Made by a program: the position numbers and the translations under genes. Below the pieces are notes generated by a model. It had not been told where the DNA came from. It saw nothing but the letters and a program-made list of their open reading frames with translations, and searched no databases. DNA of 48,133 nucleotides from Deltaproteobacteria bacterium (lineage in GTDB: Bacteria > SAR324 > XYD2-FULL-50-16). Positions 40,263-48,133 of the stretch are shown one piece after another; within the stretch, counting starts at the first letter, position 1, and the number at the start of each line of letters is the position of its first letter. The stretch lies in NCBI GenBank assembly GCA_029881655.1, contig JAOUME010000003.1:1-48133 (forward strand). Reading direction: 5' to 3'.

Positions 40263-41966
40263 CTACTGGGAAATCGCCTTAACAAGCAACTGTCTTTTCC
40301 TTTCACCCCGAAATAGATTTTCCTCTAAAGTAAAAGCGATATCCAGATTTGAACCTGGGGAAAAATCCTGTACACCGTTCCAATAGATCATTTCCAGATC
40401 TTCTCCAAAGTTCCATTTCAAATGTTTTTCCATCATTATCTTTGGCTCCGGCAGCTTTAAATCCTTCAACATAAAAACGGGTTTATCGTTATTAAGGCCG
40501 TAGGGTTCAAACAGCTTTAACCTTTCGATAAGATCAAATGAGCACATTTCCAAAGTCACCTCCAGATCTGTTTCTATTTTTGGGTTTAAAACATTGACCG
40601 TTTCCCGCTTGCAGTATTGGTAGTATTTTTCCTCCAAAATCACGAGGTTTTCTTTCGTTATACTTAGTCCTGCGGCATTGGCGTGACCACCATAAAAAGC
40701 CATGAGATCGCCGTTCTCATGAAGAAAGTCGAACATATTGATGTTGTACGACCGACAAGACCCCTTAATGATTCCATCCAAACCATCAGCCAAAATAATC
40801 GTTGGCAGTTTTAAGCTTTCCATGATTCTGCTAGCAATAATACCAATAAGCCCTTCATGAAAAGAGGGGTCGTAAAGTAAAACCCCCAACTGGTCCCTGG
40901 CGATCACCTCCGCTTTTTCCAATGCGGCCTTTGACATGCTTTGCTGTTTTTTTTGTCTTTTTCTGTTTAACTGAGCTAACAGATTATGATTCTCCTCAGC
41001 TGACTGCTGGTCATCAGAAACTAAGAAATTAAGGGCTTTATCGGCTTCTCCTAAGCGACCCGCGGCATTTATCATCGGTGCCAAACGAAAGGCGATCAGT
41101 CTTGGATCAATTTTTTGGATTTTATTTTTTCTATAAAAGATCTTAAAACACCAAGAGTCAGACTCTTGCCCCTCATCCAAGGCTTTTTGATCCATCTGCT
41201 CCAAACCAAATTTGACGAAAAGCCGATTTAATCCCAGAAGGGGCACTTGATCGGCGATCGTGCCTAGTGCAACCAGATCCAGGTACTTTAATAGATTGGG
41301 TTCAGGTAAGGATTGAGACCAGAAGCCTTTGGTCCTGAGCTCCGTTCTAAGTGCCGTCAAAAACAAAAAAGCGATTCCTACACCAGCTAGATTTTTTTCC
41401 GGATAGGGGCAGCTTTCCTGCTTCGGATTGATCACCAGACACTCGGGCGTTTGCTCTAATATCGGCAAATGGTGATCAGTGATAATTACCTCGATTTGAT
41501 GATCTTGAAGAAAAGACACTTCTTGCTTTGAACAGATCCCGTTATCGACAGTTAATACCAATGAAGGTTTCCTTATAACGATTTCGTCCGCGATTTTTTG
41601 CGTCAGACCATAACCATGTTTAAAACGGCTTGGGATTAAAACCTCAAAATTCTCAATCCGGGAAGCTTGGAAAAAACGGAATATCAATGCGGAAGAGCTG
41701 ATTCCATCGACATCGTAATCCCCCAAAATCAGTATTTTCCCTTTCTCGTTGATAGCTTGAATAACCCTTTGAACAACCTCTTTCATATCTTTAAGAATGA
41801 CAGGATCGGGAATATCCTTTAAGGCTGGCTTAAAAAAAGAGGATGCCTCCTTTAGCGAATCGTCCTTGATGATCGCCTGAACGATCTGATCTTCGGTCGA
41901 AAGGGGAGATTGCTTTTGATACCAAGAATGAAGGTAGGTTTTTGAAATGATTTTTGGACGGATCAT
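40263..41966 (-). CDS. recJ: ssDNA exonuclease RecJ
   Basis: GDYDVDG, VDNG, TDHH, LGTIAD.VPL, INAAGR, GGHANAAG. Confidence 0.95.
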   Translation of the reverse strand: MIRPKIISKTYLHSWYQKQSPLSTEDQIVQAIIKDDSLKEASSFFKPALKDIPDPVILKDMKEVVQRVIQAINEKGKILILGDYDVDGISSSALIFRFFQASRIENFEVLIPSRFKHGYGLTQKIADEIVIRKPSLVLTVDNGICSKQEVSFLQDHQIEVIITDHHLPILEQTPECLVINPKQESCPYPEKNLAGVGIAFLFLTALRTELRTKGFWSQSLPEPNLLKYLDLVALGTIADQVPLLGLNRLFVKFGLEQMDQKALDEGQESDSWCFKIFYRKNKIQKIDPRLIAFRLAPMINAAGRLGEADKALNFLVSDDQQSAEENHNLLAQLNRKRQKKQQSMSKAALEKAEVIARDQLGVLLYDPSFHEGLIGIIASRIMESLKLPTIILADGLDGIIKGSCRSYNINMFDFLHENGDLMAFYGGHANAAGLSITKENLVILEEKYYQYCKRETVNVLNPKIETDLEVTLEMCSFDLIERLKLFEPYGLNNDKPVFMLKDLKLPEPKIMMEKHLKWNFGEDLEMIYWNGVQDFSPGSNLDIAFTLEENLFRGERKRQLLVKAISQ

Positions 41967-44293
41967 GAATTTTTATTGACCAATTTTAACCTCGCTTTTT
42001 TTGAGTCATATGAATCCATGGTTTCTAAAAAATATCTAGACTGCTCGACAAAATAAGATAAAGCGGTAGAATTTTTTCCATCGACATAATTTTTATCAAT
42101 ATAGCCGAAGTATTGCCTGGAATCAACATAGCCTGAAAGTCTGTAGTTCGCCAAACCCATTAAAAAATTCCATTCCACTTTGTTTTTCTTCGAAGGTTTC
42201 ACATCTTCAAGAATATCAATTATCTCATCCCATTTCTCCAAGCTCTTTTTTATCCTTGCCTGTTTCATTTTCAATTCCTGAAGCTCTCCGTTGCTGATAA
42301 TTCCTCCGCTACTCATTTTCATGACCAACTTGTCAAAATCAATCGGATTATAAGATTTCTCAAGATACCTTGGAAAATCAATAAAATATATCTTGTGGGA
42401 CGAACCTTTGACAGTACCAATCTCGTTGAACTTGTGACTTCTTTCAACTCTCACCTGATTTTTTAGCTCCTCAAGCTGGATTTCATCCAGCCTAAAAGGG
42501 ATTATTGAATTGCAGTCACTACAGTAAATATCATTTGGTATCCAGACGGATTCGGTTAGAAAGTTTTCCATATAGTAAATAACCGATTCGTCGATATAAA
42601 CCTTATCCAAATTGTAACTAGAAACGATACCGCAGTGATCGCAACGAAGTCGAGCCGACATGACTAAACCCGATTTTCTCTTGATAAATCCTTCGCTGAG
42701 GATATCTTTTTTTAAACTATCTGGAATTTCTATTTTTAACACTTGTGATAAAAATAGCAAAAGCTCTGCCTTTTGATCGTCCATCGGCTGATCACAATCA
42801 ATCAAAAGTTCCAAAAAAGATTCATCCGGCAGGTACTCAATGGTTTGATACAACATTTCATAATGGGTTTCAGTTAAATAATCGAAATTTTTCCATAACA
42901 ACCCAATGATTTTTTTCTGCGGATGGAGTTGGAAAAGTTTTAAAGCATAATCAACTGCGATAACATCCTTTTTATCGATGTAATATTTAAAATTCTCGAA
43001 ATAGATCTGAAACAAAACATCAACCAGATATTTTGAATAGTTTGGGTTAGGGAAAAAACTGGACCAAGGGATATCATAACCTAAGAACTTCCCCTGAAAA
43101 AGTCCCCAAAGAACCTCGGATTTCGATTTCTCGATGGAAAGTGAAAATTCTTTCTTGGTTATTTTTAATTGTTTTCCCGTCCAAATGGGTGCTTCCGGGA
43201 AAAAAAGATTTAATATCCTTTCCTGGTTTTCCTGGGTCAAAAGAGATGAATGATAATAATTGGCAATATGGTGAAGATTTTCATCGGGGTTTTCGAGCCA
43301 CTGCTTAACATACTTTGAGACAATTAAATAAATAGGAATCGATAATAAATAAAATGACTCCAGTTTGTTGATTTTAATAACTGTATTTCCAAATTGCTCC
43401 TTTTTATCGTGAAATTTCTCTACCACCCAAAGCTGCCTATGGTAATCCTCAAGAGGGATCACATCTTTTATATTTTTGATGATTTTATAAACACCTTCGA
43501 TAAATTCACCATATTTTTTTGGAATGTCCGAATGCGTTTCAAAAAAACTTTTGAGGGAGCGATCAACATCGTGCCACAGTTGCTGATCGAGGATGTTAAC
43601 GTTAATTCCAAACATATTCAAGCATTGCTTGAGTATTGAGTTAAGACTATACCCGCTAAGAAGTTTGCTTGATATCCATTCGTAGATCTCCATTTTACCG
43701 AAAAAATTGATAAATTGAAAGGTTAGTTCCACATCGGAGAACAAATCCCTGATAATGAAATAATGATCAATGATCCTTTCGATCTCTTCTTTCTCTTCAC
43801 AAAACAAAAGCAAAGAACCAATCAAAACCGTGCTCTTGATCAAATCCTTTCGGTAACTCATTAAATCCTGCAAAACGATTGGAATATGCCTCTTTTTATC
43901 TATATTTAAAAACGAATCAACAGCCACCTCCAACTCAATTCGGGTTGATTGCTCGCTCATCACCAATTGGCGGTACCATTTCTGTAACAATCCGATGGAA
44001 AAATCGTTCGGAAACACCGACAAACAGTAGGCAGCAGCGTACTTGAGTTGCCCTTCCGATTCGCGGAATATTTTCACGGCATCCTTGAAATGCTGATCAA
44101 GTTTCAATTCAGATATTTTGGATAAACCCGCTTCCTGAATTTCAATAAAAGGGGAATCAATAAAGTTGTGAATTTCTTTTTCTACTTTATCAGGATAATG
44201 GATTAGGAATTGGTAAGCACCCCAAATCGCGACCGTTTCATTTCTTGAAACCAATGCATCTTTGATCGTTTTAAGGCTATATATTTTTTCCAT
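41963..44293 (-). CDS. Large helical (HEAT-like) protein with CxxC...CxxC zinc site and C-terminal TPR-like region
   Basis: 776-aa ORF; HEAT-like N-terminus, CDHC and CSDC; ATGA overlap with recJ. Confidence 0.75.
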   Translation of the reverse strand: MEKIYSLKTIKDALVSRNETVAIWGAYQFLIHYPDKVEKEIHNFIDSPFIEIQEAGLSKISELKLDQHFKDAVKIFRESEGQLKYAAAYCLSVFPNDFSIGLLQKWYRQLVMSEQSTRIELEVAVDSFLNIDKKRHIPIVLQDLMSYRKDLIKSTVLIGSLLLFCEEKEEIERIIDHYFIIRDLFSDVELTFQFINFFGKMEIYEWISSKLLSGYSLNSILKQCLNMFGINVNILDQQLWHDVDRSLKSFFETHSDIPKKYGEFIEGVYKIIKNIKDVIPLEDYHRQLWVVEKFHDKKEQFGNTVIKINKLESFYLLSIPIYLIVSKYVKQWLENPDENLHHIANYYHSSLLTQENQERILNLFFPEAPIWTGKQLKITKKEFSLSIEKSKSEVLWGLFQGKFLGYDIPWSSFFPNPNYSKYLVDVLFQIYFENFKYYIDKKDVIAVDYALKLFQLHPQKKIIGLLWKNFDYLTETHYEMLYQTIEYLPDESFLELLIDCDQPMDDQKAELLLFLSQVLKIEIPDSLKKDILSEGFIKRKSGLVMSARLRCDHCGIVSSYNLDKVYIDESVIYYMENFLTESVWIPNDIYCSDCNSIIPFRLDEIQLEELKNQVRVERSHKFNEIGTVKGSSHKIYFIDFPRYLEKSYNPIDFDKLVMKMSSGGIISNGELQELKMKQARIKKSLEKWDEIIDILEDVKPSKKNKVEWNFLMGLANYRLSGYVDSRQYFGYIDKNYVDGKNSTALSYFVEQSRYFLETMDSYDSKKARLKLVNKNS

Positions 44294-44612: not shown

Positions 44613-46376
44613 ATGAATGTACTTATCGTTGGCGCGGGCGGCAGAGAGCATGCCCTAGCCTGGAAATGTTCAAAAAGCGCTAAAATCTCATCGCTTTTCG
44701 TGACCCCTGGAAATGGAGGAATTGCCAAAATCGCCGAATGTCTCGGAATAACCGACATTGATGAGATCGTCAAGCTGGCGGTAGACAACAAGATTGATTT
44801 GGCAATCATCGGACAGGAAGATTACTTGGTAAAAGGGCTTACCGAGTTGTTAGAAGTCAAGGGGATCTCGGTTTTTGGCCCGGGCAAATTCGCCTCCCAG
44901 CTTGAGGGAAGCAAGGTCTTCGCAAAAGAATTCATGCAAAAGCACAAAATCCCGTCCGCCAGCTACGAGGTCTTTAATGATCCAAAAAAAGCATCTAAAC
45001 ACCTAAAGGCACAACAACCACCCTATGTCATCAAAGCGAGCGGGCTGGCTGCCGGAAAAGGAGTGATCCTTGTCGATGATTTTGAGCAGGCCGAAAAAGC
45101 CATTGAGCGGATCATGGTGGATAAGTGCTTTGGAGAGGCGGGCGAACAGGTTGTCATCGAAGAATTTCTCAAGGGCGAGGAAGCTTCCTGGTTCGTCATC
45201 ACCGATGGCGAAAACTTCCACTGCGCTCCAAGCCTCCAGGATCATAAAAGACAGCTTGATCTCGATCAAGGCCCCAATACAGGCGGCATGGGGTGTTACT
45301 CCCCTGCGCCAGTCGTCACGAAGGCGGTTCAAGAGAAAATCATCAGAGAGATCGTTGAGCCTACCCTGGAAGGGATGAAAAAAGAGGGGCATCCCTATAA
45401 AGGCGTTTTATACATCGGCCTGATGATTGACCAGCAGCAACCAAAGGTCATCGAATACAACATCCGTTTCGGCGATCCAGAGTGTCAACCCTTAATGATG
45501 CTTTTAGACAGTGATCTATTGGAGATCGCTTTGGCCGCTACTGAAAAAAGACTCGATAAAATCTCAATTGACTGGAAGCAAAAATCAGCTGTTTCCCTGA
45601 TATTGGCATCGGGGGGGTATCCCCACTCCTACCAAAAAGGCCACGTCATTCAAGGATTAGAAGAGATCATTGAAGGCGATGATCTGATGGTTTTTCACGC
45701 TGGCACAAAAAAAGATCAAAACCGTTTTATGACTTCCGGCGGCAGAGTCCTTGGCGTAACCTGCCTTGCCGATGATCTCCCGAGTGCCATTGAAAAAGTC
45801 TATGAGACCGCTAAATACGTTCATTGGCCACAAATGCAATACCGCAGGGATATTGGCCTGAAAGGATTAAAAAGAATGAGCGGTAGCCGCTCTGAAAATC
45901 TGGTTACAATCCTTATGGGATCGGCCTCCGATGCTCCCGTTGCAAAAAAAGCCACCCAAATTTTAAAACAGTTCAATATCTCCTTTAAGGTTTATGTTTC
46001 TTCGGCTCACCGTACTCCGGAGAGAACCCGGAATCTTATTCAGCAGACAGAAAAAGATGGTTGCGAGGTTTATATCGCCATTGCCGGTATGGCGGCTCAC
46101 CTCCCAGGGGTTATCGCCTCTGAAACCCAAAAACCGGTCATCGGGATTCCCGTTGATAGCATGTTAGGAGGACAAGACGCCCTTTACGCGATCGTTCAAA
46201 TGCCACCTGGAATCCCGGTCGCGACCGTCGGAATCAACCGTGGTGAAAACGCGGCTCTCTTGGCGACTCAAATTCTGGCATTGAAATACCCGGCGATAGC
46301 GGCCTATCACCAAGAATACCGCCTGCAAATGGAACAAAAGGTCATCACTTCTCAGGCGGGGATAGTAGACGCATGA
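44613..46376 (+). CDS. purD-purE: Fused phosphoribosylamine-glycine ligase / PurE
   Basis: GAGGREHALAW, GLAAGKGV, GPNTGGMG, EYNIRFGDPE, GGRVL; then MGSASD, SAHRTP, AAHLPG, QMPPGIPVATV. Confidence 0.95.
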   Translation: MNVLIVGAGGREHALAWKCSKSAKISSLFVTPGNGGIAKIAECLGITDIDEIVKLAVDNKIDLAIIGQEDYLVKGLTELLEVKGISVFGPGKFASQLEGSKVFAKEFMQKHKIPSASYEVFNDPKKASKHLKAQQPPYVIKASGLAAGKGVILVDDFEQAEKAIERIMVDKCFGEAGEQVVIEEFLKGEEASWFVITDGENFHCAPSLQDHKRQLDLDQGPNTGGMGCYSPAPVVTKAVQEKIIREIVEPTLEGMKKEGHPYKGVLYIGLMIDQQQPKVIEYNIRFGDPECQPLMMLLDSDLLEIALAATEKRLDKISIDWKQKSAVSLILASGGYPHSYQKGHVIQGLEEIIEGDDLMVFHAGTKKDQNRFMTSGGRVLGVTCLADDLPSAIEKVYETAKYVHWPQMQYRRDIGLKGLKRMSGSRSENLVTILMGSASDAPVAKKATQILKQFNISFKVYVSSAHRTPERTRNLIQQTEKDGCEVYIAIAGMAAHLPGVIASETQKPVIGIPVDSMLGGQDALYAIVQMPPGIPVATVGINRGENAALLATQILALKYPAIAAYHQEYRLQMEQKVITSQAGIVDA

Positions 46377-46996
46377 GCAATCTGGCCGTTTTTATCTCCG
46401 GAAACGGAAGCAACCTTCAGGCGATCATCAACCGCTGGAAAAAAGAAGACACCGCTTTCGACATCAAACTTGTCTTTTGTAACAAAGATGACGCTTACGG
46501 GATCAGAAGGGCAACCAAGGCGGGTATACCGGTAAAGATCCTGTTGCACAGCGATTTTGTTGATAGACAAGCCTACGACCAAAAAATACAGGAGATCATG
46601 CTGGCGCATCAAATCGACCTGATTGCGTTGGCCGGGTTCATGAGACTCTTAAGCTCTTGGTTTGTCGAGAAATGGGCCGGAAAAATCTTAAATATCCACC
46701 CCTCACTTCTACCCGCTTTTCCAGGATTAAACGCTCAAAAACAAGCCTTGGAACATGGTGTCAGGTTTAGTGGATGCAGTGTTTTTTTTGTTGACTCTGG
46801 AGTCGATACTGGGGCGATCATCAGCCAAGCGGTCGTCCCCATTTTCCTAAACGACAGCTTGGAGACACTTTCAAAGCGAATCCTGAAAAAAGAGCACCTG
46901 ATTTTCCCTACCGCGATCAACGATGTAGCTCTGGGAAAGGTTTCGCTATGTAACAGTAAGGCTGTATTTAAAATAAAGGCAACCCAAACAAATTAA
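46373..46996 (+). CDS. purN: Phosphoribosylglycinamide formyltransferase
   Basis: ISGNGSNLQA, LAGFMRLL, NIHPSLLPAFPG, VDTGAII. Confidence 0.96.
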   Translation: MSNLAVFISGNGSNLQAIINRWKKEDTAFDIKLVFCNKDDAYGIRRATKAGIPVKILLHSDFVDRQAYDQKIQEIMLAHQIDLIALAGFMRLLSSWFVEKWAGKILNIHPSLLPAFPGLNAQKQALEHGVRFSGCSVFFVDSGVDTGAIISQAVVPIFLNDSLETLSKRILKKEHLIFPTAINDVALGKVSLCNSKAVFKIKATQTN

Positions 46997-46997
46997 A

Positions 46998-47345
46998 ATG
47001 ACAAAAACATCCATCGCCTGGTTTTATTCCAGAAAAGGCTGAACTACCGCCAAAAAAGCTCAAGAGTTTCTTGAGAGAAAAAGGATTCAAATCGAAGATA
47101 CCCAGTATTCAGGCGAAGTTAAATTTAACGCCGAACAAGCTTGGGAACTGCTCAAAAAAGCCGAAACGATCTATTGCGCGAAAGGAAAAAGAATTATTTG
47201 TTTTGTGCCGGAGAAAGATCCCAAAGAGGATATCCTTAAAAAGATCATCGGCCCTAGTGGAAACCTTAGAGCCCCAACATTAAAAATCGGAGAGATATTT
47301 ATCGTTGGCTTTAATCTCGACCTTTATACGGAAAAAATCGCGTGA
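46998..47345 (+). CDS. ArsC/Spx-family selenoprotein (UGA readthrough at codon 15)
   Basis: Manual translation: MTKTSIAWFYSRKG(U)TTAKKAQEFLERK...IIGPSGNLRAPTLKIGEIFIVGFN...KIA*. TGA at 47040-42 occupies the first redox-motif position. Absent from the ORF track. Confidence 0.82.
47059..47075 (+). promoter_or_regulatory. Candidate bacterial SECIS apical hairpin
   Basis: CTCAAGA-GTT-TCTTGAG: 7-bp perfect stem, loop begins with G, 23 nt between the UGA and the loop. Confidence 0.6.
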
Positions 47346-47469
47346 GTTAAAGGCTGTCGAAAAATCTATTTTCATTGACCTAGATACTCCATAAACATTA
47401 TGCATGAATTCACCCCAAGATATCGGTTTTTTGGACGTTATCTTTTCCTTAAACTCCCGGAAGTGTTGA

Positions 47470-48133
<664 letters not shown>

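Follow-up and report, generated by a model that had tools for sequence, protein, structure and literature searches.

The window, a stretch of 48,133 nucleotides, ends in a tight same-strand purine cluster made of a purD-purE fusion, purN, the gene of a probable selenoprotein and purA (Table 1). The frame of the third gene opens at ATG 46998-47000, runs through 14 sense codons to TGA 47040-47042, continues for 100 sense codons (47043-47342) and ends at TGA 47343-47345; no in-frame Met codon is present 3' of the first TGA in the frame up to 47345. The earlier note on this DNA had described the frame in the same way, including the lack of a later in-frame ATG, and re-reading of the sequence showed this description to be correct. 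The read-through product is MTKTSIAWFYSRKG-U-TTAKKAQEFL...GPSGNLRAPTLKIGEIFIVGFNLDLYTEKIA. An N-terminus of the form M-[ST]-K is common to the window protein and its relatives (alignment with 19 relatives), and the gene's own stop TGA sits at the usual C-terminus of the NF041106 family. With table 11, the sole ORF in the selenoprotein frame is a 46-aa GTG ORF (47205-47345), so a gene caller using this table either misses the gene or calls the 46-residue stub.

Table 1. Features of the selenoprotein locus and its two flanking genes (positions in the window).
Feature	Coordinates	Strand	Details
purN (formyl transferase), upstream neighbour	46373..46996	+	PF00551, 204.2 bits; stop TAA 1 nt before the selenoprotein ATG
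ArsC-family selenoprotein CDS	46998..47345	+	115 residues = 114 standard + Sec15; stop TGA 47343-47345 included; frame, NF041106 match, alignment with 19 relatives
UGA codon 15 = Sec	47040..47042	+	alignment column shared with TGA in 18 relatives, Cys in 1
Codon 18 GCC (Ala), where the family has its second (resolving) Cys	47049..47051	+	alignments; copy in run X2
SECIS hairpin	47059..47075	+	7-bp stem CUCAAGA/UCUUGAG, loop GUU, loop G 47066; starts 16 nt after the UGA; folding and conservation
Cys60 codon TGC	47175..47177	+	predicted strand 57-62; Cys at 60 in 0/126 other family sequences
Cys68 codon TGT	47199..47201	+	predicted strand 65-69; also in P0002, not in L120; 0/126 other family sequences
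purA (adenylosuccinate synthetase), downstream neighbour	47494..48132	+	PF00709, 268.5 bits; runs off the window

The region around codon 15 was also found in the run of a second study (X2), where a contig of 151 nt with a low depth (2.6) covers 47007-47157 with 0 differences and spans both the TGA and the GCC codons. Run X1 gives a match as well, but may be the source sample. None of the listed sequencing runs is an RNA run.

The purD-purE fusion (44613-46376, + strand) is a single ORF of 587 residues with the GARS N, A and C domains and AIR carboxylase, and its stop overlaps the start of purN (ATGA, 46373-46376). Upstream of it, on the - strand, a 776-residue ORF (41963-44293) has no Pfam family above threshold; a weak match to 'Effector-associated domain 4' (E 4.9e-4) is below cut-off. 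The surroundings of the selenoprotein gene were screened in about 100 loci. No redox partner recurs near the gene in these loci and the neighbourhood is not conserved, with other housekeeping contexts observed; gyrA, for instance, lies upstream in 10 of them. In 25 cases, a semialdehyde dehydrogenase gene (PF01118, PF22698) lies downstream in the same orientation, with a median distance of 7 nt (e.g. L034:1914-2945), an arrangement which suggests that the two genes are co-transcribed in those lineages. The window has no such neighbour. Because the context is not conserved across the about 100 loci, the neighbourhood was dropped as a clue to function.

Family assignment and predicted fold

The read-through protein matches the NCBIfam model NF041106, 'ArsC family (seleno)protein', at 111.7 bits (cut-off 85), over profile positions 1-107 of 107 and residues 6-110. 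No Pfam family is found at E up to 0.1, PF03960 included, and TIGR00014 (ArsC) is absent from the NCBIfam matches within the same limit; a few distant homologues carry a precomputed PF03960. The models TIGR01617 (Spx/MgsR; 22.8 bits, cut-off 75.05) and NF008107 / PRK10853 (YffB-type ArsC family reductase; 14 bits, cut-off 121) score below their cut-offs, and the glutaredoxin models of NCBIfam far below theirs.

This kind of selenoprotein is already known: the family is curated as NF041106 and is listed in a 2026 review as 'Arsenate reductase-like protein', with motif UxxC and one Sec (PMC13188914). The window protein shares with this family the Sec column, a SECIS hairpin formed from the A-Q-E-F-L codons and the C-terminal half GPSGNLRAP...VGFN. 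Its identity to the relatives that were found does not exceed 56%. It differs by its motif, U-T-T-A instead of the UxxC of the review (PMC13188914), and by its place in a separate clade together with the metagenome locus L120 and the database protein P0002 (C18 to A/S, A38 to S/T, K40 to D/E). The text of the review does not mention a 'UxxA' motif; the supplementary files of the papers may list motif variants. 'ArsC-like' selenoproteins had been tabulated in 2006 for Desulfotalea psychrophila and Desulfuromonas acetoxidans (Zhang et al. 2006, PMC1794560). These are likewise Sec-containing ArsC homologues of anaerobic delta-type lineages, and their identity with NF041106 is assumed from the table entries of that paper, not from sequences. 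A Sec-containing arsenate reductase with motif UxxS (COG1393 / TIGR00014) is part of the Sargasso Sea set (PMC1088965, PMC13188914). As an ArsC-superfamily protein that has one selenol and lacks a second Cys, it is, from the accounts given in these two papers, the nearest published analogue of the UxxA of the window, although it belongs to a different family (TIGR00014, not matched by the window protein).

The AlphaFold2 model (20-row alignment) has a pLDDT of 94.3. Its predicted elements are a strand (8-11), a helix (16-27, helix 1), a strand (35-37), a helix (45-52) and a hairpin (57-62/65-69), followed in the C-terminal part by a helix (76-83), two strands (94-97 and 100-103) and a last helix (107-114). 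Sec15 directly precedes helix 1 in this model. The N-terminus of helix 1 is the usual position of the nucleophile in CxxC oxidoreductases, and the product would be a small protein of thioredoxin/glutaredoxin fold with its selenol at this place. R773 ArsC uses a catalytic Cys plus an arginine triad; alignment with Spx places just one Arg in the window protein, that of the conserved N-L-R-A-P loop. The name 'ArsC family' is used here for a sequence relation, and carries no claim of arsenate reduction for the window protein.

Relations to structures of the Spx, YffB and ArsC families (1z3e, 6gho, 1rw1, 3gkx, 3l78) were examined with several methods; no solved structure of the NF041106 family itself was found in these structure comparisons. 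Common features are the thioredoxin-like core, the nucleophile that starts helix 1 and an R-x-P loop ahead of the last strands. In contrast, identity is 11-21%, with a TM of about 0.5 and an rmsd of 6-8 A (Foldseek), the middle of the window protein consists of a helix, a beta hairpin and a helix, and the curated family cut-offs are missed. Spx is the best match both for sequence profiles (E 9e-5, positions 8-110) and for Foldseek (E 6.6e-5, TM 0.55), which would fit a regulatory Sec protein, e.g. a redox-sensing partner acting as Spx does for RNA polymerase. With VIA, however, YffB 1rw1 comes at the top (Z 8.3), followed by Spx-like 3l78 (Z 7.8) and ArsC-related 3gkx (Z 7.7, in an ArsC-related range of 7.6-7.7), and all these rows (Z 7.6-8.3) barely exceed the Z of about 7 obtained for plain glutaredoxins and GST N-domains. 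The Spx switch moreover requires a CxxC pair, absent in the window protein, the middle subdomain differs (the beta hairpin 57-69 stands in place of helices), the TM remains about 0.5 and TIGR01617 gives less than a third of its cut-off score. A regulatory role of this kind is thus quite improbable.

Codon 15 in homologues and the Sec machinery

The genomes of 40 relatives were searched in six frames and the gene was identified in 19 of them; an in-frame TGA is present in 18 of these copies and missing from 1. All 18 TGAs align with codon 15 of the window gene (G-U-x-x-C), where the remaining copy has a Cys (N-C-T-T-C). An order-level genome search added no genome to the first 40. When one genome per species was scanned with a pattern, 363 relatives were obtained: the best 80 of these 363 consist of 79 UxxC and 1 CxxC forms, from SAR324, Desulfuromonadales, Desulfobacterales, Poribacteria and other taxa, many of them Desulfuromonadales or Desulfobacterales. 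A metagenome scan gave 46 loci, distributed as follows: a non-TGA stop in L164, a frameshift in L162, U-V-S-S in L120 and UxxC in the rest. In L164 (767-862) the non-TGA stop codon occupies the Sec column of a short partial match, and L162 (1501-1849) is a frameshifted copy of a gene intact in L128; either may be a decayed copy or an assembly error. Over the 144 DNA loci, window included (the parseable loci among 145, L019-L163), the codon at the Sec column is TGA in 142 cases, TGT in 2 and TGG in 0.

Some database proteins have a Trp at the Sec column: 17 of the 75 in one set (the query P0001 is among the 75) and 11 of the 148 in another. Taken at face value, they would fit a recoded genome that translates every TGA as Trp or Gly (code 4 or 25). 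Against this, 10 of the 17 W proteins are 79-91% identical to loci with TGA in the DNA (45-62% for the other 7), and the tails of P0003 and P0019 past the family C-terminus begin with W, i.e. the stop was read through. No W database protein corresponds exactly to any compared DNA locus, so the mistranslation argument rests on these 79-91% identical pairs and on the read-through tails. We read the W forms as code-4-type mistranslations of TGA, and not as real Trp. In addition, TGG is found in no locus, and TGA is an ordinary stop in the window too, since 4 of the 25 long stop-to-stop frames end with it, as does the selenoprotein gene itself. A dedicated tRNA-Sec (UCA) is also present in the genome, together with selA, selB and selD. 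A recoded genome is therefore extremely improbable. The earlier note had proposed to look at this codon in homologues, with Trp among the residues that would speak against Sec: the homologues carry TGA or Cys, and Trp appears solely in database proteins that we take as mistranslated.

Trp at the Sec position is present in many public proteins (P0003-P0015, P0019, P0020, P0059 and others) and constitutes a systematic annotation artefact of selenoproteins. Such Trp residues and read-through tails are expected from gene calling with TGA=Trp on short metagenome contigs, where code 4 callers write Trp at the active site.

The search for selA, selB, selC and selD, also suggested by the note, found all four in the genome, which is 88.7% complete in 304 contigs. 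selA scores 518.8 bits (cut-off 267.9). selB scores 327 bits (cut-off 242.25), with its N-terminal part at a contig end and a C-terminal piece on another contig. selD (G000:C287:10108-11025; 348.1 bits, cut-off 125) has one in-frame TGA and is itself Sec-containing. The tRNA-Sec reaches 65.1 bits with Rfam (gathering 47), and its anticodon is tca according to ARAGORN.

The probable SECIS hairpin

The hairpin located downstream of codon 15 was compared with the bacterial SECIS model as given in the review: an apical loop of 3-9 nt on an upper stem of 4-16 bp, a G as the first or second base of the loop, after which G or U usually comes, a distance of 16-37 nt from the UGA to the apical loop, and an MFE of -7.5 kcal/mol or below (PMC13188914). 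The window hairpin has a loop of 3 nt and a stem of 7 bp; G47066 is the first loop base and U follows; 23 nt (47043-47065) separate the UGA from the loop. The MFE is -7.4 kcal/mol for the 23-nt hairpin, -7.5 for 45 nt and -9.0 for 61 nt, values that border on the published limit of -7.5. Stability does not distinguish the hairpin significantly from shuffled sequences (z -0.84; 32 of 200 shuffles fold as well). No SECIS family was reported by Rfam over 46900-47450 at E up to 10, where chance-level unrelated matches alone were obtained. After the terminal TGA (47343-47345) there is no hairpin with a G-first loop.

Each of the 127 distinct TGA forms that were compared keeps the loop G. In 106 of them the stem pairs in one register with 5/5 bp; another 17 use a shifted register instead (CAGG/CCUG, 4/4 bp), and the remaining 4 have 4/5 bp. 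The hairpin is built from the codons for A-Q-E-F-L. In 19 TGA forms, Gln22 (CAA), Glu23 (GAG) and Leu25 (CTT) use one codon each (entropy 0), versus an entropy of 0.79-2.19 for all other conserved multi-codon columns. In the 18 sequences with CTG for Leu25, codon 22 always ends in G, and Phe is TTC in 16 of these 18, compared to just 3 of the 108 CTT sequences. The lower stem co-varies via the wobble base of the Ala21 codon, with 6 cells changed on both sides; this covariation score is reached by 0 of 500 shuffles, and slid controls are far lower. In the Cys form a GAA codon removes the loop G, and the hairpin falls to -3.6 kcal/mol versus -7.4. L120 retains the TGA and the same hairpin. Two alternative codon solutions that produce one hairpin are unusually clear comparative evidence for a SECIS in NF041106. 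While the ribosome stands at the UGA, SelB-GTP-Sec-tRNA(Sec) would bind the hairpin and insert Sec.

A branch without the second cysteine

The earlier note had placed the TGA at the first position of an N-terminal CxxC. The first half of this statement holds, the TGA being in the first Cys column, but the second Cys is absent and the motif is U-T-T-A. Such a motif is rare: a census of 145 sequences gives 140 UxxC, 2 CxxC and 2 UxxS, and the window is the sole U-x-x-A. L120 and P0002 both have U-V-S-S, the Sec of P0002 being inferred from a 'W' in its protein sequence. Three positions set the three sequences apart (given in the order window, L120, P0002): position 18 is A, S and S versus Cys in 126 of the 126 others, position 38 is S, T and S versus Ala in 125 of 126, and position 40 is E, D and D versus Lys in 116 of 126. 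From TGC to the GCC of codon 18 there are two substitutions. Among their other cysteines, Cys68 occurs in both the window and P0002 and Cys60 in the window alone, neither being present in the 126 others, and L120 is without any Cys, with a Glu at 68.

The three sequences also group in trees from which the motif columns were masked. The more careful of two trees, built from 59 rows after thinning to less than 72% identity, unites them in one branch with supports of 100 UFBoot and 97 SH-aLRT. This clade is recovered by every one of 200 bootstrap trees (100%) and its stem is 0.53 long; for this tree the tool warns of long branches and few columns. The clade also appears in a quick tree with 129 rows (SH-aLRT 98), in which the window row is flagged for unusual composition and long branches. 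In view of this flag, there may be some relaxation of constraint in the window gene.

More forms lacking Cys18 are found among distant database proteins (P0046, P0052, P0090, P0091 and the CxxS form P0171), so losing the second Cys is a recurrent event in the wider superfamily. A strict coupling of positions 18 and 38 was considered: true in the DNA-backed set, it is broken in the wider 50%-identity library, where 5 sequences combine C18 with S38 or T38 and 2 combine S18 with A38.

The missing resolving Cys, a table 11 reading that stops at codon 15 and the lack of a Pfam match could together be understood as marks of a pseudogene, in which a Cys codon has mutated to TGA and left a dead remnant or a 14-residue peptide. 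This is very improbable. TGA is the normal codon of the family (142/144 loci), the 100 downstream codons are open and all 20 invariant columns of alignment A2 are kept, the Sec/Cys column included. The gene has an intact SECIS, the genome encodes the Sec machinery, and the Cys-less state is common to a deep clade. The preference of the earlier note for Sec decoding over pseudogenisation is thus borne out by the NF041106 match, the TGA in 142 of 144 loci, the conserved hairpin and the Sec machinery. We conclude, with a probability of about 0.92, that 46998-47345 is an intact, expressed-type NF041106 selenoprotein gene, in which UGA15 is read as Sec via the hairpin and whose product is most likely a single-selenol protein.

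The three linked changes of the clade suggest, at the level of sequence, a one-selenol active site. Ala replaces the resolving Cys in the window protein and the clade has lost that Cys, and Sec15 would therefore work as a single selenol: a substrate, or a thiol from outside the protein, would be bound to it in a mixed selenenyl-sulfide, in place of an intramolecular Se-S cycle. By analogy with monothiol glutaredoxins or with CxxS/UxxS ArsC-type enzymes, a single-selenol mechanism is the most likely one for the window protein. An alternative is that the resolving Cys has been relocated, with Cys68 (strand 65-69) or Cys60 replacing the lost Cys18 in a Se-S bond with Sec15. The distribution of the two residues is suggestive, since Cys68, found in the window and in P0002, is seen in 0 of the 126 others, and Cys60 is unique to the window. 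However, L120 has kept its TGA and hairpin although it has no Cys at all and a Glu at 68, and the register of the predicted hairpin should turn residues 60 and 68 towards opposite faces of the sheet. Relocation is accordingly unlikely. As a clade-wide rule, a relocated Cys68 is weakened by the Cys-free L120; for the window copy it is possible.

Returning to the single selenol, we tentatively propose, at somewhat less than even odds, that NF041106 includes a one-selenol branch, so far undescribed, to which the window sequence, L120 and P0002 belong. In this branch the loss of Cys18 would have been accompanied by changes in the loop that follows strand 2 (Ala38 to Ser/Thr, Lys40 to Asp/Glu), and the chemistry or the substrate would differ from those of the UxxC majority. 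Some members may have a new partner in Cys68, and the gene would here be part of a purine-biosynthesis operon. What is new is this small Cys-less clade, a modest detail: one divergent member is added to a known selenoprotein family. The biological gain is small and no new question is opened by the gene alone, but it offers a clean worked example for the recognition of such selenoprotein genes.

Finally, in gene trees whose deep forks are poorly supported, the copies carried by genomes of the window's own taxonomic family (L026/L036, L033/L035/L037 and L038) occupy three places, none of them sister to the window copy. The gene tree therefore departs from genome taxonomy, by transfer or old paralogy.
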